From positions 28,013 through 92,012 of IMG/VR virus record IMGVR_UViG_3300037483_000742: DNA of 64,000 nucleotides, one strand, 5' to 3'. Positions within the stretch are counted from its first letter, which is position 1, and every line of letters starts with the position of its first letter. Below the pieces are notes generated by a model. That model was not told the DNA's origin. It did no database searches and saw only the letters and a list, made by a program, of their open reading frames with translations. This stretch comes from a virus. Below are positions 6,548 through 45,882 of this stretch, piece after piece. A program made the position numbers and the translations under genes.

Positions 6548-8692
6548 TTAATTCTGCAACAATTTCAGTAACTTTTTCATATTTTTATTCCCACTTCCAT
6601 CCTCATACACTTTATCTAAAGTTTCTTCCTGGACTTGGATCATGCACATTATTAATGCTGAAACTGCATCGAAGTTACCTTTTCTATTGTATGCTATTAA
6701 TTCTTCCAAAAGTCTGACAGAATATATTCTATCTAAATTTCTGATCTTATTTCCATCTTCATCATGATCTACTACTTCAAGTAACCATTCTTTAATATAT
6801 CTTTCTCCTGCATCTTTTAACTTGTCAGTCATGTGACATCCATAAACCCTTTTAACTTTAGAGTTTTGTATGTTTGCAGAAATAACTCTGTCAGGTTGAG
6901 CTGCTAATAAGTTAAGTCTTTTTATTCTTCTGAAGAAGTTCTTTACAGCAGTAACTTCATTCTCATGCATAATAGTTGTATTATAGAAGTCAGCTAACAT
7001 TTCTGCTATCCTATCCATATCTTCAGGTGTTTCCATCCTTCCAATATATTCTGCAACTATATTGCTATGTAAGAAAGAACCTTTATGTACTCCTTTATAA
7101 ACTATAATACCTGCTAATGATGTTCCTTTATCCTGTCTTACAGGGTCATAACCTATTTTGTATAACCCTTTTGGTGGATTTGCTATAGGTTGTTCATAGA
7201 TTACTACATGTCCTCTTTTGTCTGTAGGAAGATTATGATAACTTGTTATTGGTGTTGCTTTACCATTCAATATAGGTTTGCATTGAATCTGACCTTCATG
7301 ATAATAAAGCTCTACTGGAGTACCTTTTATGTTCTGCCAATCTCTAGCAATAACAAGTCTTAGTTGTGCTTTTAATTCTACTACAGGGAAGTTATTTACA
7401 GAGATGGAAGAGAAGGCTTCATTTGGCCCCATTGGTTTCTCCTGCATCCTTTGATTAATCTCTGTTGAGGTTGCACCATTTTTGATCAAATCTTCTCTGA
7501 TCTTTAACTCTAATTCTTTAGCACCTTTCTGATCTGAATTACCTTGTTCATCATAGTAACCTTCCATGTTCCAGGTTATAGGATGGAAGAAACCACATTT
7601 AGTATCTTGCATTCCTTCATCCCAAATATTGTTGAAAGGAAGTAATCCAAAAGCTTCAGGTCTTGAATGCATGTCAGCATAATCTGCTGTTCCACCTTCC
7701 ATATCTCCTGAAGTTCCAAACAATGTGATCATACCAGTTTTAATAGCTCCTGCCATTACACAATCCTGTGTTGCAGCATAAGAACCTTTTAGTAATCCTG
7801 GTGTTCCAAATGCTCCTGATTCTTCAAAGAAAATATCTTCAGCATCTTTCCCCCTGGCTGCATCTTCATTGTCTTTGAATGTTAAAGCTTGAATCTCTGA
7901 CATCAATCCAAGTTCTAATTCAATACCTGCGGAATTTGTTTCAGAGTATGAAGCTCTGATATGATCTTGTCTTCTGATAAAATCTGAGGGAGTTGCCCAG
8001 GCTGTATGTTCATTGATGAAGTTTATGTTAGCCATTGCCATTGTAAAAATACCTTTAGGATAAAGATATTTTTTCTCATAAGCTCCAAAGATTGTATAGG
8101 ATTCAGGTTTTGAGAAAAAGTTATTTGTAGCAATAGCTGCTGACTTTAGGGAATATCCTTTACGTCTAGATTTACCTACAATAATATTCCATCCACCTCT
8201 AAGATAATCAACTTCAATTTTAACTTCAAGATGTAGACTTTCATACAATCTTTTTAATTCTACAGCTTGACTTAAACTATCTAATTTTAAAGTTGCAGTT
8301 TTTATTTCATCATCTCCAATTGCATCAAGAAGACCTTCTTTAGCAATCATTCTTATCCAAAAGTAATTGTAATCTCCATCCCAAAAATCTGGAAATCCTT
8401 TTATCTTTTTTGATTTACCTTTTGATTTATCATCAACTTTCATTATTGGACAAAAGTTGAGATAGAAATAATGTTCTCCTGTTATTTTACTTCCTCCAAT
8501 TGTATAACCTTCAGTACATCTTTTTCTTTGTTCATACCAATAGTCATACCATGCTGGAGATTCCCAAGGATCATTACAATAATAACCTTGCTTAATAAAT
8601 CTTCTACCTTCTTCTCTGAATAATTGAGTATTAATCCAAATACCATCTGGATTTCTGATTGAATCTAATCTCCCGTCTTTATACTCATCCAT
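6548..8692 (-). CDS. terL: Terminase large subunit
   Basis: Walker A-like VGKSRRKGYS, Walker B IFFEESG, coupling motif FGTSG, RNase H-like nuclease GYDP...NFDAVSA. Confidence 0.92.
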   Translation of the reverse strand: MDEYKDGRLDSIRNPDGIWINTQLFREEGRRFIKQGYYCNDPWESPAWYDYWYEQRKRCTEGYTIGGSKITGEHYFYLNFCPIMKVDDKSKGKSKKIKGFPDFWDGDYNYFWIRMIAKEGLLDAIGDDEIKTATLKLDSLSQAVELKRLYESLHLEVKIEVDYLRGGWNIIVGKSRRKGYSLKSAAIATNNFFSKPESYTIFGAYEKKYLYPKGIFTMAMANINFINEHTAWATPSDFIRRQDHIRASYSETNSAGIELELGLMSEIQALTFKDNEDAARGKDAEDIFFEESGAFGTPGLLKGSYAATQDCVMAGAIKTGMITLFGTSGDMEGGTADYADMHSRPEAFGLLPFNNIWDEGMQDTKCGFFHPITWNMEGYYDEQGNSDQKGAKELELKIREDLIKNGATSTEINQRMQEKPMGPNEAFSSISVNNFPVVELKAQLRLVIARDWQNIKGTPVELYYHEGQIQCKPILNGKATPITSYHNLPTDKRGHVVIYEQPIANPPKGLYKIGYDPVRQDKGTSLAGIIVYKGVHKGSFLHSNIVAEYIGRMETPEDMDRIAEMLADFYNTTIMHENEVTAVKNFFRRIKRLNLLAAQPDRVISANIQNSKVKRVYGCHMTDKLKDAGERYIKEWLLEVVDHDEDGNKIRNLDRIYSVRLLEELIAYNRKGNFDAVSALIMCMIQVQEETLDKVYEDGSGNKNMKKLLKLLQN

Positions 8693-8694
8693 AA

Positions 8695-9273
8695 TTAAAT
8701 AGCTTTGAAGGAAGCTTTTTTAGCAAAAGGACTTACTTTTTTATCACTTCTCATTTTAGCTTTTGCATAAACTTCCTCTTCAACTTTTATCTTCAGTGAT
8801 TCAAAGTTTGTTAGAATTGCTTCTGTATCTTTCAAAGCATTAGTAACATCTTTAGGTTTCAACATTAGATTAAATGTCTTAGGATTTACTTGAGTAAGAT
8901 CAAAAGTATTATTGAAGTGTCTCATTTTTTCTACTGCTTTTTTAGCAGACAAATAATACTGATAACTTTCAGAAGCTTCTTTTTGAAATTTATGAATAGC
9001 AGCTATCCCTTCTTTCATTAAATCATCTATTGGTCTGTCTTCTGAAAAACCTATAGCATTTCTAATTTCAGTTTCTTTCCTGTCTCCACTATAACCTTTA
9101 TAAGGATTAGTTTTTAAAACAGAAGTCATGAACTCAATATATTTGAACTCAGCTCTTGCAATTTCTTTGTCTGCTGATGTATCTCTTTCCCAAATTTCTT
9201 TAAAGGGAGAAATCAACAGAGTTTCAGGAGTGGGGATAACCGCCACTCCCTCTACAATGAATAAGTATGACAT
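8695..9273 (-). CDS. Conserved protein upstream of TerL (terminase small subunit candidate)
   Basis: 192 aa, mainly helical, 2 nt from the TerL start; positional inference only. Confidence 0.45.
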   Translation of the reverse strand: MSYLFIVEGVAVIPTPETLLISPFKEIWERDTSADKEIARAEFKYIEFMTSVLKTNPYKGYSGDRKETEIRNAIGFSEDRPIDDLMKEGIAAIHKFQKEASESYQYYLSAKKAVEKMRHFNNTFDLTQVNPKTFNLMLKPKDVTNALKDTEAILTNFESLKIKVEEEVYAKAKMRSDKKVSPFAKKASFKAI

Positions 9274-9275
9274 AT

Positions 9276-9599
9276 CTATTTATATTTTTCTACTGTGACA
9301 GAGAAATTATCTGCTTCTCTTGCATACTTTAAAATACCATAACCTTTCATTTGTTTTTTTGGTATTTCATAGTAACCTTTTTCTCTAATGTATTTGTTCT
9401 TTACTTCACCACCTATATCATAAAATTTATCATCTATTCTGGTAATACAGTGATTGTCTCTATCTGACCAGTAGGCAATAGCTTCAGGATATATCAGTTT
9501 AAGTATTTTGTACAATCTAAAGCAAGAGCCTTCAGTAAAAATCTTATACTGCACATCAGCAGATTCTCTTAGTTCTTTTAAGAATAGTTCTATATCCAT
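9276..9599 (-). CDS. Small protein with papain/transglutaminase-like Cys-His-Asp spacing
   Basis: FTEGSC (C26), NHC (H50), YDIGG (D61). Confidence 0.4.
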   Translation of the reverse strand: MDIELFLKELRESADVQYKIFTEGSCFRLYKILKLIYPEAIAYWSDRDNHCITRIDDKFYDIGGEVKNKYIREKGYYEIPKKQMKGYGILKYAREADNFSVTVEKYK

Positions 9600-39849: not shown

Positions 39850-40896
39850 ATGAGTAAATTTGCACATACTACTGATGATATTGAAGAATTGGGTTTTATT
39901 AGTAAGCAGAAATTACTAGAGTATGTTACTGAAGAAGATATTTTTGAACTAGTTTTTAAATTTAAGCCTGTAGAATTTGAATATATAACGTCACCACTGA
40001 GGATAGATACTAATCCTGGTTGCTGGTTTGAAACTGATATTACTACAGGTAAACTAATGTTCAGAGATTTTGGAAGAGGTGACAGACCTCTAGATTGTTT
40101 TGATGTTGTTCAACAGTATTTCAATTTACCTAATTTTTACAAGACTCTTGATTTTGTTAAGAAAACATTACTTGATAAAGTAGGAATACAACATGATATA
40201 AAAACCTATGTTGCTGTTTCTAAAAGAAAAGTAGTTGTAAAAAATAAAATTAAGATTTTAGTAAAGACAAAGCCATTCACTGATAGTGATAGGAAATTTT
40301 GGCAACCTCTTGAAATAACAAAAGAACAATTAATTGAAGATAAAGTTTTTCCAATAAGCATGTTCAAAATGCTAGGTACTAAGAAAGGAGATATTACCAT
40401 TAAGGTAAATAAACCTACTTATGCTTATACAGATTTTGAAGATGGTCAAAAGAAAATTTATCAGCCTTACAAAAAAAAGAAATTTAGGTTTTCTACTAAT
40501 TGCGATGAAAATGCTGTTGGAGGAATCAACAAACTTGTACCTTATGGTAGACAATTGTTGATTACTAAATCTTACAAAGATTATAGAGTTTTGAAGAATC
40601 AAGGACTAAATGTAGTTTGGTTCCAGAATGAAGGTATGATACCTTCATTGAAAATTCTTTCTAACTTGATTGAAAGATTTGATAAAATTATTGTCTTTTT
40701 TGACAATGATAATACAGGCATTGAAGCAGCAAATAAAGTAGTTAATTTGATTAATAGCCAGGTTTTAAATAAAGCAAGACAAGTTCATTTAGATGTTGAA
40801 TTAGTTAAGAAGGATATAACTGATCCAGCAGACTTAATGAAGCAAATGGGAAAAAGTACACTTATTGAGTTTTTGAAATTTCAAAACATTAAATGA
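39850..40896 (+). CDS. dnaG: DNA primase (TOPRIM)
   Basis: SPLRIDTNPGC...FRDFG...DCF, LITKSYKD, FFDNDNTG, DPAD. Confidence 0.85.
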   Translation: MSKFAHTTDDIEELGFISKQKLLEYVTEEDIFELVFKFKPVEFEYITSPLRIDTNPGCWFETDITTGKLMFRDFGRGDRPLDCFDVVQQYFNLPNFYKTLDFVKKTLLDKVGIQHDIKTYVAVSKRKVVVKNKIKILVKTKPFTDSDRKFWQPLEITKEQLIEDKVFPISMFKMLGTKKGDITIKVNKPTYAYTDFEDGQKKIYQPYKKKKFRFSTNCDENAVGGINKLVPYGRQLLITKSYKDYRVLKNQGLNVVWFQNEGMIPSLKILSNLIERFDKIIVFFDNDNTGIEAANKVVNLINSQVLNKARQVHLDVELVKKDITDPADLMKQMGKSTLIEFLKFQNIK

Positions 40897-40935: not shown

Positions 40936-41637
40936 ATGAGCGATCAAAGAGTTATTACTATTTACTCCACCAAAGGAGGAATGAAAGAAATCACAACCAC
41001 AGCAACAACCTGGGGAGAACTAAAACCACAAGTAGAAAAAGCTGGTTATGATCTCAGAAATCTTGCTGCAACTTGTGGTAATACAAGAAACAGTCTTGAC
41101 AGAGATGATGCTATTCTTCAAACTGGAGATTATACCATCTTCTTGAGACCAGTAAAAACAAAATCTGGAGCAACTTTAAAAGCAGATGCAAAAAGAAGTG
41201 ATGTAAATGCTGTTGTTAAAGAAATGACTGAAAAGCATGGAGAAGATTTCAGAACTCATATCAATTCAAAAGGGAATTGGACAAGAGTTACTACACCAGA
41301 AATTGTAGAGTTGATTAACTCTTATAAACCATCAGGAAAGAAAACAGATAATGGTGTAGGCAAAGTTGTTAAGACTGTTGCCGAATCTAAAAAAGCTGAA
41401 AAAAAGACTTCCACAACAGAAAAAGTTAAAGCAACAGAAGTAAGTGATGATGCATTTGCTGATGCAAGACAAGTTCTTGAAGATGCAGGAGTATCTTCTG
41501 AAGTTCTTGCTGGTTATGACAAATTTGCAGCAGAATTTTCTCCAGAAGCATTAGAAGCAAAATCTAGTGAAGATGCAGAAGCACAAAGACTTCGTGAAAA
41601 AGAAGAAAAATTAGCTAGAGAGTTTAATGATTTCTAG
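40936..41637 (+). CDS. Ubiquitin-like (beta-grasp) precursor with C-terminal extension
   Basis: aa 1-78 show a beta-beta-alpha-beta-beta pattern ending KTKSG, followed by a 155 aa extension; first gene before E2, JAB and E1 genes. Confidence 0.65.
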   Translation: MSDQRVITIYSTKGGMKEITTTATTWGELKPQVEKAGYDLRNLAATCGNTRNSLDRDDAILQTGDYTIFLRPVKTKSGATLKADAKRSDVNAVVKEMTEKHGEDFRTHINSKGNWTRVTTPEIVELINSYKPSGKKTDNGVGKVVKTVAESKKAEKKTSTTEKVKATEVSDDAFADARQVLEDAGVSSEVLAGYDKFAAEFSPEALEAKSSEDAEAQRLREKEEKLAREFNDF

Positions 41638-41657
41638 TAGTCCATTATTTTAAACCT

Positions 41658-41692
41658 AAAAAGCTCTGTACTTAATTGTACAGAGCTTTTTT
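41658..41692 (+). terminator. Rho-independent terminator between Ubl and E2-like genes
   Basis: AAAAAGCTCTGTAC-TTAATT-GTACAGAGCTTTTT, perfect 14 bp stem. Confidence 0.75.
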
Positions 41693-41704
41693 AATTTAGT
41701 AACT

Positions 41705-42991
41705 ATGAGTAATAATACAATAAAAACCAGTAGTCTGTTAGAAACAGGCTGTCCTCACAGAAGGTACTTAGGAAGATGTGTTAAGAATGGCTTAACCAGA
41801 AACCTTGATTGGTGGACAAAAATGTTTCTAAAAGGTAAAGTAGAAAATAATGGTGTACCACCAGAATATATTCTAGGAGATGATATTAATTTATTCATTA
41901 ACACAATGAATGGAATAATGGCTTCTCTTGAATTTAATTTTCCAGGAAATTGGGAAGTTCATTTAGAATATGAAATAGGAGATGATTGGGATGAAGAAGA
42001 AGAAAGAGATGTGCGTCGTATAATAGCTATAAAACCTTTATTTTTAATTAGATTTCCAGAAGTCAATATTACAAATAGTCAAAATGGTTCTCATTTGATT
42101 AAAGAGTTGTTCTATGTTTTTAGATTGTATCATACTGAGAGTAGTGATATAGTACAAAATTATTATAGGATAAAATCTTATTGGCCTGGAACACCTATGG
42201 GAACTAGAGGACAATTAACTGCTGTAGAACATCATTGTCAGTATCTTCATTCACATTTAAGTAGTACTTATGTAAATTCTTACAATGAAACTTATAAACT
42301 TAAAGAATTTTGTACAGGTAGTAATGAATTAAATGATTTGCAAGCTATATTAAGAGAAGGATTTGATGCAAGTGTATTCAATTTGTATCTACTTACTGTA
42401 GAGAGTTTCGTTAAATGGGAATCTATTGAAGGAAGACCTTATATGTACATCAGTAATATCACTGAAAGTAATAGTTCAGAAATACCTTTAGAATGGAATC
42501 CTGAAATTATGGAGAATTACAAAGCTGCAATAAAAGAAGCTATGAATAATTACTATCGTATAGAAGCAAATTTCAACTTTATGGTAGATAGATTTATTAT
42601 AAAGGTTGATGAAAAATTTATTCAATTTGTAAAAAATCTTTTAATAACTTCTAGAAAGAAAAATCTACTATCAACTTTTCTTGTACAAAGACATGAAAAT
42701 CATTACAGAGGCTATGGTCAAATGACTATCTACACACAAAAGGAATTAAATTCAATGCTTAGTCACTCTGAGGGTTTTCTACCTTATACTTACATAAGAG
42801 GAGAACAAATAACATTTAAGATAATTGCACATAGGGGGAAGGCAGTTGATCCTAATGATTTTACAGTACACCCTTCTTTATTAAATCACGTTAAAAAACA
42901 ATTTGAAAATGAATTATACAAAAAACAAGTTCAAAGAAGTGCAATTGAATCTTCAATCAAAGGTAATTATGCCAAAAAATGTATTGCATAA
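41705..42991 (+). CDS. Prokaryotic E2-like (UBC fold) conjugating protein
   Basis: YLHSHL followed about 20 aa later by EFC203TG, then helix and WESIEGRPY; sits among Ubl, JAB and E1 genes. Confidence 0.6.
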   Translation: MSNNTIKTSSLLETGCPHRRYLGRCVKNGLTRNLDWWTKMFLKGKVENNGVPPEYILGDDINLFINTMNGIMASLEFNFPGNWEVHLEYEIGDDWDEEEERDVRRIIAIKPLFLIRFPEVNITNSQNGSHLIKELFYVFRLYHTESSDIVQNYYRIKSYWPGTPMGTRGQLTAVEHHCQYLHSHLSSTYVNSYNETYKLKEFCTGSNELNDLQAILREGFDASVFNLYLLTVESFVKWESIEGRPYMYISNITESNSSEIPLEWNPEIMENYKAAIKEAMNNYYRIEANFNFMVDRFIIKVDEKFIQFVKNLLITSRKKNLLSTFLVQRHENHYRGYGQMTIYTQKELNSMLSHSEGFLPYTYIRGEQITFKIIAHRGKAVDPNDFTVHPSLLNHVKKQFENELYKKQVQRSAIESSIKGNYAKKCIA

Positions 42992-44117
42992 AATACAATA
43001 CCTGTGCAAAAATATTGTTGAAGTAGAATGGTCTGGTATTATTCTTTATGAAGTTGTAGGTAGTATCAAAAAACTTGATACTCTGCAATTAATTTTGAAA
43101 GATATTATTCCAATGAACAAAGGGAATAAAACTTTCACAAGCTATTCTTTTAATGAACCTAAAAGAGACAATTCAGGTTATGAAGATGCTCACATAGATT
43201 ATATGCAAGCTAATCCACATGCAATGAAATGGAAAATAGGACATATTCATAGTCACAATAGTATGAATGTTTTCTTTTCAGGAACAGATATGGAAGAGTT
43301 ACATGATAATGCTCCTTCACATGATTTTTATTTCTCAATCATTGTAAATAATTACATGGATTTCATGGCTAAAATAGCCTTTGTAGCAAGAGCGCAAACT
43401 ACAACTAAAAAAATACCATATATTGCTTTTGATGAAAAAGGAAAGCCCTATACTATTGAAGAAATGGCTTTTAAAATTGACAATGAAAAATTATTTTTAA
43501 TTGACTGTAAAATAGATTCTCCAAAAGAAGAAATTACAGTTGATGAAAGTTTTGCAGCTCAAGTAGCTTATATCATCGACAAAGAAAAAAGAGCAGAAGA
43601 AGCCAGAAAAGTAGAACATGAAAACAAATGGAAAACTCCTGGACATAATGGTAATGGTAAGGTATGGCAACATCCTAGTAAACAAACTGCTTTAGATAAA
43701 GCAATTGCTAAAAGTACTACTTGGTTTGGAGGTCATATTGAAGATACACCTGGATTTGGAAAAGGTTTTTCTGATACTTCTACTGATATTGAAATGTTTA
43801 TTGTCAGTTTATTAAGAGGTGGAAATATTGCAGACTTAGAAGTTTTAAGTTTGGAAGGCACTTTAGAAGAAATTGAAGCATTAAAAGAAACAGTAGTTGA
43901 TGGAGTAGAACTTGCTGAAATAGCAATGACCAAATTTGGAGATTGTTTCAAAATGATCTTTGGAGAAGGTAAAGGAGAAGATCATTTATTTAGTATTCTG
44001 GAAGAAACTCTTGAAGTATTAGAGAATGAAGAAGTAGGTTTTCCTTGGTTAGCTCCAATGGTTTCAAGTTTTAAAAAAATGATTTTAACATTAGAGAAAG
44101 ATGAACACACAGTCTAG
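42909..44117 (+). CDS. JAB/MPN+ metalloprotease (deubiquitinase-like)
   Basis: VEWSG Glu plus GHIHSHNSMNVFFSGTD (HxH-x7-SxxD). Confidence 0.88.
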   Translation: MNYTKNKFKEVQLNLQSKVIMPKNVLHKIQYLCKNIVEVEWSGIILYEVVGSIKKLDTLQLILKDIIPMNKGNKTFTSYSFNEPKRDNSGYEDAHIDYMQANPHAMKWKIGHIHSHNSMNVFFSGTDMEELHDNAPSHDFYFSIIVNNYMDFMAKIAFVARAQTTTKKIPYIAFDEKGKPYTIEEMAFKIDNEKLFLIDCKIDSPKEEITVDESFAAQVAYIIDKEKRAEEARKVEHENKWKTPGHNGNGKVWQHPSKQTALDKAIAKSTTWFGGHIEDTPGFGKGFSDTSTDIEMFIVSLLRGGNIADLEVLSLEGTLEEIEALKETVVDGVELAEIAMTKFGDCFKMIFGEGKGEDHLFSILEETLEVLENEEVGFPWLAPMVSSFKKMILTLEKDEHTV

Positions 44118-44796
44118 TATTATACAATCAAGTAGATTTAAAGATGCTCCCTGGTTTAACGAAACTGCTGAAAGAGTAATAGTAGGTGGAGCAGGAGGAA
44201 TTGGAAGTTGGTTAAGTTTCTTTTTAGTGAGAGCTGGTTTTGAACCTATAGTTTATGACTTTGATAAAGTAGAAGAGCATAATTTAGGAGGACAGCTTTT
44301 TAGACAGAAAGATATTGGTAGATTTAAAGTAGAAGCTACAGCAGATATTATCAATACTTTTTCTAATAAAAATATTTCTGGATTTGTTCTTCCTGTAGAT
44401 GGCACTACTCCACATCATCATTTTGCTTTTTCTGCTTTTGATAACATGAAAGCCAGAAGAGATTTATTTGAAGTTTGGAAGAAAAGTCATGCTGGAGCTT
44501 CAGTTACACCATTATTGATTGATGGTAGACTTACTATGGAGCAAGTACAAATTCTTTGTGTAACTCCTGAAAACATGGATAGATATGAACAAGAATATTT
44601 ATTTGATGATTCAGAAGTTGAAGATGCAGCTTGTACTTTAAGATCAACTACTCATTCAGCAGCTTTAATAGCTTCCTTAATGACAGGATTTTTCACTAAC
44701 CATATTTCTAACATCAATGAAAGAAAGTTAATTAGGACAGTTCCTTTTTACTATGAATTTTTCATACCTCAAGTACTAACAGATTTAATAACTTAA
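44101..44796 (+). CDS. E1-like / ThiF-family adenylating enzyme
   Basis: VGGAGGIGS, YDFDKVEEHNLGGQ, FDNMKAR, IDGR, DAAC178T candidate catalytic Cys; no CxxC zinc motifs. Confidence 0.9.
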   Translation: MNTQSSIIQSSRFKDAPWFNETAERVIVGGAGGIGSWLSFFLVRAGFEPIVYDFDKVEEHNLGGQLFRQKDIGRFKVEATADIINTFSNKNISGFVLPVDGTTPHHHFAFSAFDNMKARRDLFEVWKKSHAGASVTPLLIDGRLTMEQVQILCVTPENMDRYEQEYLFDDSEVEDAACTLRSTTHSAALIASLMTGFFTNHISNINERKLIRTVPFYYEFFIPQVLTDLIT

Positions 44797-44799
44797 TTT

Positions 44800-45882
44800 A
44801 TGGTATTTTTTAGGACAGAAACTTACAGAAAAAAAGATTACTATTCTAATGGACATAAACTTGATTATTTGATTTTTTTCAAAGATGAGTATTTTCCTAT
44901 CAGTTTTCTTTCAGAAGAATATTTGAGAGAAGATGTAGTCTATCTACCTGATGGTGGGTTTGTGATTCAAAATCATATTCCCACTAATGGAGAAGCTAAA
45001 GTTTATAATAGTATTGGAAGATTTGCAGATTTCTTAGCTAATTTTAAGTACTATGATATGCTTTGTCAGTATTTTTTCAAAGTAAAAAAAGTTGAACATT
45101 CTATATTTTTCAGAAAGGGAGAAATTTATAGTTCTACAGGAGAAATTCTGTTAACTTTGACCACTAATTCTAAGAGAATATTCCTTAGAGGAAAGAATCT
45201 TGATTTGAAAGTTTTGAAGCTATACATAGCAGTAGAATTTCAAAATAATCCTATCTACAAGACTATTTACACTAAGTTAAAAGAAGAGTTCATAGATTTG
45301 GTAGCAGGAGAGATAGATATTGTGATTACTAAATCTGAAAAAATCTTCAGTGAACTTTACAGAAGAAGCTTTAAATTAACTTTTGAAGATGTGAAAAGTT
45401 TGGGAAATATGTTTGATGAAAGTGTGCAAAACTTTTATAATACATTTGATCCTGAAGCTTACAAGCAGCAAGTTTTAGAACAAAATCCTAATGTTGAAAT
45501 TAGAGTTATTGAAGTTGAGAGAATTAAAGAAGAACCAGTTACTATTAAAAGAAAAGTAGTAAGAGGATCAGCATCTCCTTATGATTTAGATCAACAAACT
45601 GTATTGGATTCAGTTATTAATACTGCTGTTGACAATTTTGTTTCACAAAATTTATATGGCAGTGGAGGAATTGTAACTTCATCAAATACTACTACTAATT
45701 CATTTATGATAACTGATTCAATAGGTTCAACAAGAGCAGTTACAATGGATTCTGGAATGTTGAATTTACAAGAAATGGATGGTCAGAATAATTTTGACAA
45801 TTCATTAGGTACAATGCCTTTACAAGAATTTAATTCAACTCCAGAAGAAAGTAATTCTGAAGATCAGGATTTAGAGTTTTAG
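44800..45882 (+). CDS. Hypothetical protein (globular N-terminus, disordered acidic tail)
   Basis: 360 aa, 3 nt after the E1 stop. Confidence 0.65.
   Translation: MVFFRTETYRKKDYYSNGHKLDYLIFFKDEYFPISFLSEEYLREDVVYLPDGGFVIQNHIPTNGEAKVYNSIGRFADFLANFKYYDMLCQYFFKVKKVEHSIFFRKGEIYSSTGEILLTLTTNSKRIFLRGKNLDLKVLKLYIAVEFQNNPIYKTIYTKLKEEFIDLVAGEIDIVITKSEKIFSELYRRSFKLTFEDVKSLGNMFDESVQNFYNTFDPEAYKQQVLEQNPNVEIRVIEVERIKEEPVTIKRKVVRGSASPYDLDQQTVLDSVINTAVDNFVSQNLYGSGGIVTSSNTTTNSFMITDSIGSTRAVTMDSGMLNLQEMDGQNNFDNSLGTMPLQEFNSTPEESNSEDQDLEF

Follow-up and report, generated by a model that had tools for sequence, protein, structure and literature searches.

A gene cassette in the replication module of crAss-like phages that looks like a phage-borne ubiquitin-like conjugation system

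The prokaryotic E1/E2/JAB/Ubl systems characterised so far, namely type II CBASS, Bil and Bub, are all bacterial and all anti-phage. Bil has no E3, and its E2 is thought to choose the targets. Bub uses serine oxyesters and a DUF6527 protease, and in type I Bub the JAB and the E1 are fused. In the tail-assembly genes of lambdoid and T1 phages, the Ubl TAPI occurs with TAPK, a JAB plus NlpC/P60 protein, and release by the JAB has been predicted (Iyer et al. 2006). Published maps of ΦcrAss001 and crAss-like phages label only a 'ThiF family' and an 'MPN' gene (GenBank; Yutin et al. 2021, Supplementary file 1). Both sources leave the ΦcrAss001 Ubl (AXQ62722) and E2-like protein (AXQ62721) 'uncharacterized' and propose no conjugation pathway, and in a 2026 preprint the sole mention is of a gut-phage protein family that matches UBA5 in structure.

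We analysed a 64,000-nucleotide stretch of viral DNA (the window) from the complete 92-kb genome of a crAss-like, Flavobacterium-type phage, whose nearest relatives are FpV4-like phages that are not formally in Crassvirales (NCBI taxonomy). An interpretation made earlier from the letters alone (the sequence-only reading) had proposed a Ubl-E2-JAB-E1 operon of four consecutive co-oriented genes between a primase and nucleases, and had noted ThiF-like annotations in crAss-like phages. The four ORFs and their motifs were all found at the stated coordinates (Table 1). All four domain assignments held up, that of the E2 with the limits given below, and the remark on ThiF was correct, the MPN gene being annotated as well. 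A RusA-like resolvase and an exonuclease VIII-like nuclease form the other flank of the cassette. The genes from that of the E2-like protein (E2c) through X5 are tightly packed or overlapping, with the start of the E1 gene overlapping the JAB stop by 17 nt. The listed start of the JAB gene is a TTG at 42903; ATG codons at 42909 and 42969 are equally possible.

Table 1. Coordinates within the window of the cassette genes, key codons and adjoining features
Feature	Coordinates	Strand	Remarks
DNA primase	39850-40896		upstream flank of the cassette; PHROG DNA primase, 1.6e-87
Ubl precursor	40936-41637	+	233 aa
β-grasp domain of Ubl	40936-41169	+	residues 1-78 (predicted)
Gly78 codon of Ubl	41167-41169	+	
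Intrinsic-terminator-like hairpin	41658-41692	+	between the Ubl and E2-like genes
Core stem of hairpin	41663-41671 / 41678-41686	+	9 bp, GC-rich
E2-like protein (E2c)	41705-42991	+	428 aa; predicted UBC/UEV-fold domain, residues ~29-242
His184 codon of E2c	42254-42256	+	
Cys203 codon of E2c	42311-42313	+	
JAB/MPN+ (JAMM)	42903-44117	+	404 aa; metalloprotease domain, residues ~25-160
Minimal E1	44101-44796	+	231 aa; single ThiF/MoeB/UBA5-type adenylation domain
Cys178 codon of E1	44632-44634	+	
X5	44800-45882	+	starts 3 nt past the E1 stop

The order Ubl-E2c-JAB-E1 was kept in 74/74 viral loci, a count restricted to those extending far enough among 80 viral contigs in all. The same cassette was found in ΦcrAss001, family Steigviridae. 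Even in phages that are distant from one another, it occupies a constant position within the replication module and not in a variable accessory region. As judged from aligned homologues, residue conservation in the four ORFs is far above chance expectation.

The Ubl precursor consists of a 78-aa domain, in which KTKSG ends at Gly78, and a 155-aa tail in which a disordered Lys/Glu/Ala-rich linker accompanies two helical segments. In the AF2 model (pLDDT 80), residues 5-72 formed a ββαββ arrangement, and Foldseek against the PDB returned ubiquitin, UBX, SUMO, NEDD8 and ISG15 with a probability of 1.0 (TM 0.6-0.7, rmsd 2-3 Å, 75-79 columns), in support of the β-grasp domain that the sequence-only reading had proposed. 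The top fold matches were ubiquitin, UBX, SUMO and NEDD8 rather than the sulfur carriers ThiS and MoaD. Gly78 was invariant in 70/70 distinct homologues, while the length of the tail after it differed between relatives, from a single residue to about 290. Stand-alone homologues of 77-90 aa have a C-terminus of KSG plus 1-3 residues; such ends, together with the invariant Gly78, are the pattern of modifier precursors and therefore support the conjugation reading. These results support a ubiquitin-like β-grasp modifier precursor, whose cleavage and attachment to lysine are inferred.

Downstream of the Ubl gene lies an intrinsic-terminator-like hairpin, with an A-run on one side of its core stem and a T-run on the other. 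The predicted RNA fold had an energy of -25 kcal/mol (z = -4.8), and a hairpin with a U-run was present in 52/62 distinct Ubl-E2c intergenic regions of relatives versus 10/1240 shuffles. Placed 3′ of the Ubl gene, this element may ensure that more Ubl is made than of the enzymes acting on it.

The E1 carries the motifs GGAGGIGS and YDFDKVEEHNLGGQ as well as Cys178. It matched Pfam ThiF (PF00899) at 3.9e-17 (62.7 bits versus a cut-off of 28.1), and its best PDB profile match was UBA5 (1e-17), with MccB and PaaA also among its PDB relatives. When aligned to E. coli ThiF by hhalign (98% probability), C178 fell on C184 of ThiF, in the crossover loop; neither the translation nor this alignment revealed CxxC pairs, i.e. 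the enzyme is without a zinc site. These results bear out the ThiF/E1 assignment, including the lack of zinc motifs, made by the sequence-only reading. Cys178 was present in 58/59 distinct homologues, with one gap, and G30, G32, D53, D55, N61, K76, D114 and R143 were present in 59/59.

Enzymes of this minimal ThiF/MoeB type, with Cys178 on ThiF C184, also serve sulfur transfer. The best NCBIfam matches of the E1 were ThiF models, all under cut-off (ThiF equivalog, 53.6 bits versus 159), and GenBank records label the gene as a thiamine biosynthesis protein. These points favour a sulfur-carrier pathway, in which the adenylated Ubl would be turned into a C-terminal thiocarboxylate, the sulfur donor for some small molecule or nucleic acid, and the JAB would only trim the precursor or free the adduct, roles known from the CysO/Mec+ and QbsE/QbsD systems. 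We consider this pathway quite unlikely. A search of the complete 92-kb genome gave no match to PP-loop ATPases, rhodaneses or the ThiS/MoaD family and no thiazole or molybdopterin genes, extending beyond the window the earlier statement that thiamine, molybdopterin and tRNA-thiolation genes are missing, although host enzymes might still provide the sulfur. In addition, the Ubl is nearer to ubiquitin, UBX and SUMO than to ThiS and MoaD and has Lys-Ser before a single terminal Gly, and a linked UBC-fold protein with an invariant Cys would have no role in known sulfur relays.

The second of the four genes encodes the E2-like protein, whose translation contains H182-S-H184 and C203. The AF2 model (pLDDT 94.8) showed a helix, a four-strand meander, a His loop, the Cys and then helices, which is the E2 layout; a C-terminal domain of ~180 aa remained without an assigned fold. 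VIA-align matched the model best to the Tsg101 UEV, aligning 135/144 residues at an rmsd of 4.0 (Z 5.7), and UBC, UEV or RWD domains made up at least 36 of the 50 leading matches in a wide structure search. The Z-scores (4-5.7) were below 8, in a range that the tool terms common, and Foldseek gave no PDB match. Sequence profiles found nothing in Pfam, NCBIfam or PADLOC, with UQ_con, Prok-E2_A-E and Cap2 E2 all unmatched, and hhalign of the family against five Cap2 E2 domains detected no similarity (probability 0.7%). Because it matches no known E2 sequence family, E2c is E2-like in fold only and belongs to no named E2 family. The earlier E2 claim is supported within limits: a modelled fold resembling UBC/UEV, the HSH motif and an invariant C203 were found, whereas an E2 sequence profile and a Foldseek match were not. 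The E2 assignment relies on topology and on a similarity of modelled fold whose Z is modest (about 5-5.7), without profile support, and the equivalence of C203 to the E2 cysteine is inferred only from the order of secondary structures, with no superposition.

The best structural matches of E2c are the non-catalytic UEV and RWD domains. This fact, the absence of a sequence tie to any E2 family and the presence of MccB and PaaA among the relatives of the E1 would all fit a locus without E2 catalysis. E2c would then be a UEV-like scaffold that binds the Ubl non-covalently, its Cys, His and Glu would be structural or serve another reaction, and activation of the Ubl C-terminus by the E1 would lead straight to ligation or cyclisation, by analogy with MccB and PaaA. 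Conservation makes this very unlikely in our judgement. C203 was present in 223/223 family members, H184 in 222/223, and E239, S240 and P245 each in 223/223, which for the Cys, His and E239/S240 is conservation of active-site grade. H182 was replaced by Gln in 25/223 members, which speaks against a structural HxH metal site, and the Cys comes after the β-meander and His loop and before the next helices, an order shared with E2 enzymes. Lack of conservation of G78 or C203 in homologues would have refuted the original proposal, and the invariance of both leaves it unrefuted.

The JAB protein has the motif E42-W-S-G and H116-S-H118-x7-S126-G-T-D129, followed by a helical C-terminal region of ~240 aa. 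E42, H116, H118, S126 and D129 were each conserved in 62/62 distinct homologues. In an hhalign comparison with 30 Prok-JAB segments from Bacteroidota (111 columns, E about 1e-3), the five catalytic residues were all in register, and the JAB/MPN+ motif described previously is indeed intact. The scores against Pfam Prok-JAB were under the cut-off of 25 bits both for this protein (13.4 bits) and for ΦcrAss001 gp77 (20.4 bits, 4.9e-4). By its motif and the profile-profile alignment, the protein is a divergent member of the family.

The same biochemistry could be aimed at host Ubl immunity, i.e. Bil, type II CBASS Cap2/Cap3 or Bub, either by a JAB that strips host Ubl or CD-NTase conjugates or by phage Ubl, E1 and E2 that tag and block host defence proteins. 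Every characterised bacterial system with these components acts in phage defence, the phage E1 weakly matches Cap2-type E1-E2 models, and Cap2 and Prok-JAB genes are present in the host phylum, Bacteroidota. Nevertheless, counter-defence would need no more than a deconjugating JAB, whereas the four genes are strictly linked, and their position in the replication module is constant among distant phages, unlike that of a variable accessory region. A Cap2 was detected in only 5/401 sampled Bacteroidota genomes, a low frequency given how conserved the countermeasure would be. We regard counter-defence as unlikely.

A single protein family follows the E1 gene in 54/66 loci, and X5 is a member of it (E 2.3e-28). 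The family is weakly conserved (mean column identity 14%), and X5 had no recognisable domain, with no match in Pfam, NCBIfam, PADLOC, PDB or Atlas. It is a candidate fifth component of the cassette, as an adaptor or a substrate.

We favour, with somewhat better than even confidence, a phage-encoded Ubl conjugation module that is expressed alongside the genes for replication. The analysis itself shows the modelled folds, the motifs, the conservation of residues, the strict linkage of the genes and the hairpin, and cleavage, adenylation, thioesters, conjugation, targets and role are all inferred. The Ubl would be synthesised as a precursor, from which the JAB would cut off the variable tail just past Gly78. 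The small ThiF/UBA5-type E1, probably a homodimer, would adenylate Gly78 and probably also hold the Ubl as a Cys178 thioester. The Ubl may then be handed to Cys203 of the UBC/UEV-fold protein, with the help of the invariant His184, and moved by that protein onto lysines of phage or host proteins. Target choice might lie with the C-terminal domain of E2c itself or with the conserved downstream protein, and the JAB could reverse the modification as well.

A broader statement, to which we give barely better than even confidence, is that lytic crAss-like phages, including the cultured gut phage ΦcrAss001 and phages of the fish-pathogen FpV4 group, own a complete Ubl pathway fixed in the replication module, with an unrecognised E2 family and a pro-Ubl of variable tail, and use it to tag host or phage proteins during infection. 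If true, this would be the first Ubl conjugation system owned by a virus of bacteria, and a complete, conserved cassette on the phage side would mean that bacteria and phages alike make use of Ubl tagging. It would also add a large E2-like family unseen by sequence profiles (3181 representatives at 50% identity) and give a function to four or five genes of an abundant gut and aquatic phage lineage that are now 'hypothetical' or mis-named as 'thiamine biosynthesis'. The hypothesis is directly testable, since both ΦcrAss001 and FpV4 are in culture together with their hosts.

Among known systems, Bil (BilABCD) has the same four parts, an E2, a JAB, an E1 and a Ubl processed C-terminally by a JAB peptidase, and the phage cassette shares with it the lack of an E3. 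The phage cassette does not meet the Bil architecture, since its E1 is a single ThiF-like domain; moreover, its E2-like protein has no detectable sequence kinship to known E2 families, and it lies in the replication module of lytic-type phages, whereas Bil lies in bacterial defence loci. Bub (6E/DUF6527) and type II CBASS Cap2/Cap3 share the prokaryotic E1, E2 and JAB chemistry and adjacent JAB and E1 genes. In contrast to the serine oxyester type of Bub, the two catalytic positions of the phage cassette are the conserved cysteines of E2c and E1, and Cap2 differs in that its E2 and E1 are fused and in that it conjugates a CD-NTase instead of a dedicated Ubl. ThiF-ThiS and MoeB-MoaD are nearest to the phage E1 in size and layout, with an aligned crossover-loop Cys and a β-grasp carrier with a Gly end, but the phage E1 lacks the CxxC zinc site and is linked to a UBC-fold protein and a JAB. 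The thiamine ThiF/ThiS pathway itself was rejected, as ThiS-family, rhodanese and PP-loop matches were absent genome-wide and the ThiF equivalog score was far too low. A PRTRC cassette was likewise rejected (NCBIfam PRTRC_A, 14.3 versus 101.8 bits; PRTRC_ThiF, 38 versus 144.75; no ParB gene in the cassette). The phage Ubl resembles TAPI, in which a further domain likewise comes after a conserved C-terminal Gly, but the TAPI/TAPK system has no E1 or E2 and is located among tail genes, whereas the present cassette is located among replication genes. In ΦcrAss001 this cassette corresponds to gp79-gp76, which follow the primase in identical order. Only two of the four parts had been annotated before. 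Taken together, the cassette looks like a phage-borne form of the bacterial Ubl conjugation systems, with conjugation, targets and role as inferences.

The virus record is a complete genome of 92,012 bp with direct terminal repeats at its ends; the window covers its bases 28013-92012, and the GC content of the window is about 31%. The closest named relatives of this phage belong to the FpV4 group, which infects Flavobacterium psychrophilum (~90 kb each), to which DNA identity was ~72% and confined to the JAB-E1 genes. Translation recovered the four cassette ORFs as the sequence-only reading had described them, namely a ubiquitin-like precursor (Ubl), an E2-like protein (E2c), a JAB protease-type protein and an E1, and each motif it had quoted fell on the residue it had assigned. 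From E2c through the gene following E1 (X5) the genes are densely packed, with overlaps or 3-nt spacing. The best-supported reading, which we regard as reasonably probable, is a JAB-primed Ubl-E1-E2 conjugation pathway, conjugation itself being inferred; JAB would prime Ubl, which would then be relayed from E1 to E2c.

Features of the cassette (+ strand, window coordinates) and coordinates in related loci (L-numbers)
Feature	Position	Remark
Genes upstream		SNF2-type helicase, DnaB-like helicase, Sak4-like ATPase, primase
Ubl	40936-41637	
Ubl tail	41170-41634	
Hairpin and U-run	41658-41692	directly after the Ubl gene
E2c	41705-42991	
JAB	42903-44117	start TTG 42903, or ATG 42909, or ATG 42969; overlaps end of E2c
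E1	44101-44796	start overlaps JAB stop by 17 nt
X5	44800-45882	begins 3 nt past E1 stop
Genes downstream		RusA-like resolvase, exonuclease VIII-like nuclease, dNMP kinase, SF1 helicase
Long E2c forms	L007:4794-6854; L008:4779-6809; L009:4704-6860	also P0005, P0008 and others
Long E1 forms	L019:8155-9303; L057:8007-9257; L095:8013-9152	L019 is ΦcrAss001 gp76
Distant E1-type loci	L011:7313-7936 with 7893-8585; L012:455-1333 with 1308-2003; L013:1668-2348 and 8925-9581	

Ubl had no match in Pfam, NCBIfam or PADLOC. The β-grasp proposed for it was supported by an AF2 model (pLDDT 80), which contained a ββαββ β-grasp at residues 5-72 with a flexible K-T-K-S-G tail, and by Foldseek matches of residues 1-78 to ubiquitin, UBX, SUMO, NEDD8 and ISG15 (probability 1.0, TM 0.6-0.7, rmsd 2-3 Å). 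Absence of a conserved G78, the presumed modifier end, had been named beforehand as a refuting point, and this residue was kept in all 70 distinct homologues taken from viral loci. G78 and L61 were invariant, and K76 and S77 nearly so, in an 80-sequence alignment. The region past G78 was the most variable part of the aligned homologues, and in several phages (L067, L079, L082 and L096) the Ubl gene encodes just 77-90 residues and ends in KSG plus 1-3 residues. Modifier precursors in which a protease exposes the glycine follow this pattern, cleavage being inferred here. That some phages encode only the 77-90-residue form shows that the system can do without the 155-aa tail of the window Ubl.

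Past K-T-K-S-G, the Ubl model contained two helical segments separated by a disordered linker. These segments (residues 87-129 and 172-232) were modelled with pLDDT near 90, and R91, G109, L226 and E229 are nearly invariant among the long forms. Since the helices are well modelled and a few positions are nearly invariant, the tail is more than filler and, once released, may have a function of its own.

E2c also lacked any match in the Pfam, NCBIfam and PADLOC profile libraries, and its family is large (3181 representatives at E ≤ 1e-3 in a profile search). An AF2 model built from a 127-sequence alignment (pLDDT 94.8) placed a helix at 58-78, four long antiparallel strands at 83-161, a loop Y180-x-H182-S-H184, a strand at 200-202, C203 and helices at 208-236, which is the order of elements in the UBC fold. 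Foldseek found no match to this model in the PDB, and its matches in BFVD were limited to uncharacterised crAss-like and podovirus proteins. Exhaustive VIA-align comparison gave modest Z scores of 4-5; E2 enzymes, UEV or RWD domains made up at least 36 of the 50 highest-ranked chains, as counted from entry titles. In a second look, model residues 29-239 aligned with the Tsg101 UEV at Z 5.7 (135 of 144 residues, rmsd 4.0 Å), and the UBC-superfamily matches stood clear of the remainder, which reached Z ≤ 3.1. That E2c is a non-catalytic, UEV-like scaffold we judge very unlikely; C203, whose lack of conservation would have counted against an E2, is invariant across 223 family members, as are E239, S240 and P245, and H184 is present in 222 of them. 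An HxH zinc site was considered and dropped, H182 being Gln in 25 of the 223. No similarity was detected by hhalign between the E2c family and five Bacteroidota Cap2 E2 domains. When the alignments of Ubl, E2c and JAB were run as profiles against PDB sequences, the only matches were spurious, helical or low-complexity ones. We take E2c for a divergent UBC-fold enzyme that is probably catalytic, and on profile evidence it is outside every named E2 sequence family.

Residues ~250-428 of E2c form a further domain without a convincing match; an MCM N-terminal-like assignment was dropped because the resemblance was weak (Z 3 or less). Some E2c proteins are 650-765 aa long, with N-terminal extensions of 250-320 aa in which no Pfam domain was found; such an extension may serve as a further module for recognising targets. 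Searching the ESM Atlas for E2c and X5 gave no useful information, the Atlas's own models being of low confidence.

The claim of an intact JAB/MPN+ motif held: E42, H116, H118, S126 and D129 were each present in 62 of 62 homologues, in register with Prok-JAB domains of 30 Bacteroidota genomes. Pfam scores were under threshold, and we therefore regard JAB as a divergent family member. A JAB-family profile scan of 185,579 prokaryote species, one genome per species, matched only two MAG contigs (L104 and L105; 2.9 and 3.1 kb), one from a Gracilibacteria MAG and one from a Sediminibacterium MAG. Both probably derive from phages and were binned with the MAGs, so the family looks virus-restricted.

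Judged by its sequence, E1 is a bona fide ThiF-family domain, and its nearest solved relatives are UBA5, UBA1, MccB, MoeB and ThiF. Alignment with E. coli ThiF by hhalign (98% probability) put C178 on ThiF C184 and non-cysteine residues at the CxxC positions, in agreement with the predicted E1 with C178 and without zinc motifs. A sulfur-carrier role for the cassette is quite unlikely, and the absence of rhodanese, PP-loop and ThiS-family genes from the complete genome weakens it. Some cassette E1s are 380-417 aa long and extend beyond the ThiF domain, at the N or C terminus, by ~150-200 aa of unknown function.

The conjugation reading involves all four genes, and these were consistently linked. 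Nine loci found via E1 contained all four in order. At 80 further viral loci found via E2c, Ubl lay immediately upstream in every case, and JAB and E1 followed E2c in all 74 that extended far enough; the other six stop at a contig edge and were excluded from this count. Distant small ThiF-like E1 genes also occur in unrelated large phage contigs of up to 188 kb, where some are immediately preceded by a JAB-like gene and two E1 copies share one contig; neither Ubl nor E2c was detected near those in L011-L013 with our profiles.

The cassette lies in the replication and recombination module of the phage, and its fixed position there suggests, as an inference from position, a role in the replication phase; a dedicated counter-defence role we consider unlikely. 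In the intergenic regions of L020-L099, the strong terminator-like hairpin with U-run between Ubl and E2c was present in 52 of the 62 distinct relatives, compared with 0.8% of shuffles, and its sequence differs between relatives. Conservation of this hairpin after the Ubl gene suggests attenuation, with Ubl made in excess over its enzymes, although there are no expression data. The X5 family occupies the slot after E1 in 54 of 66 related loci and is weakly conserved, with no PDB or Pfam relative, recognisable domain or conserved catalytic residues found; X5 may be a substrate or adaptor of the cassette.

The sequence-only reading knew of no functional description of such a phage system, and we likewise found none of a complete phage Ubl pathway in the open-access literature, nor any open-access source in which a Ubl pathway is connected with crAss-like phages; most subscription journals were outside the search. 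The gut phage ΦcrAss001 has the same order, with primase gp80 followed by gp79, gp78, gp77 (annotated metalloprotease) and gp76 (annotated ThiF), and gp75 at the X5 position; the cassette genes go undiscussed in the ΦcrAss001 paper. Two of the four cassette genes carry labels, ThiF and MPN, in GenBank and in Yutin et al. 2021 (Supplementary file 1), which bears out the statement that ThiF-like genes are annotated in crAss-like phages; the remaining two are listed there as 'uncharacterized'. A 2026 preprint mentions a gut-phage protein family that resembles UBA5.
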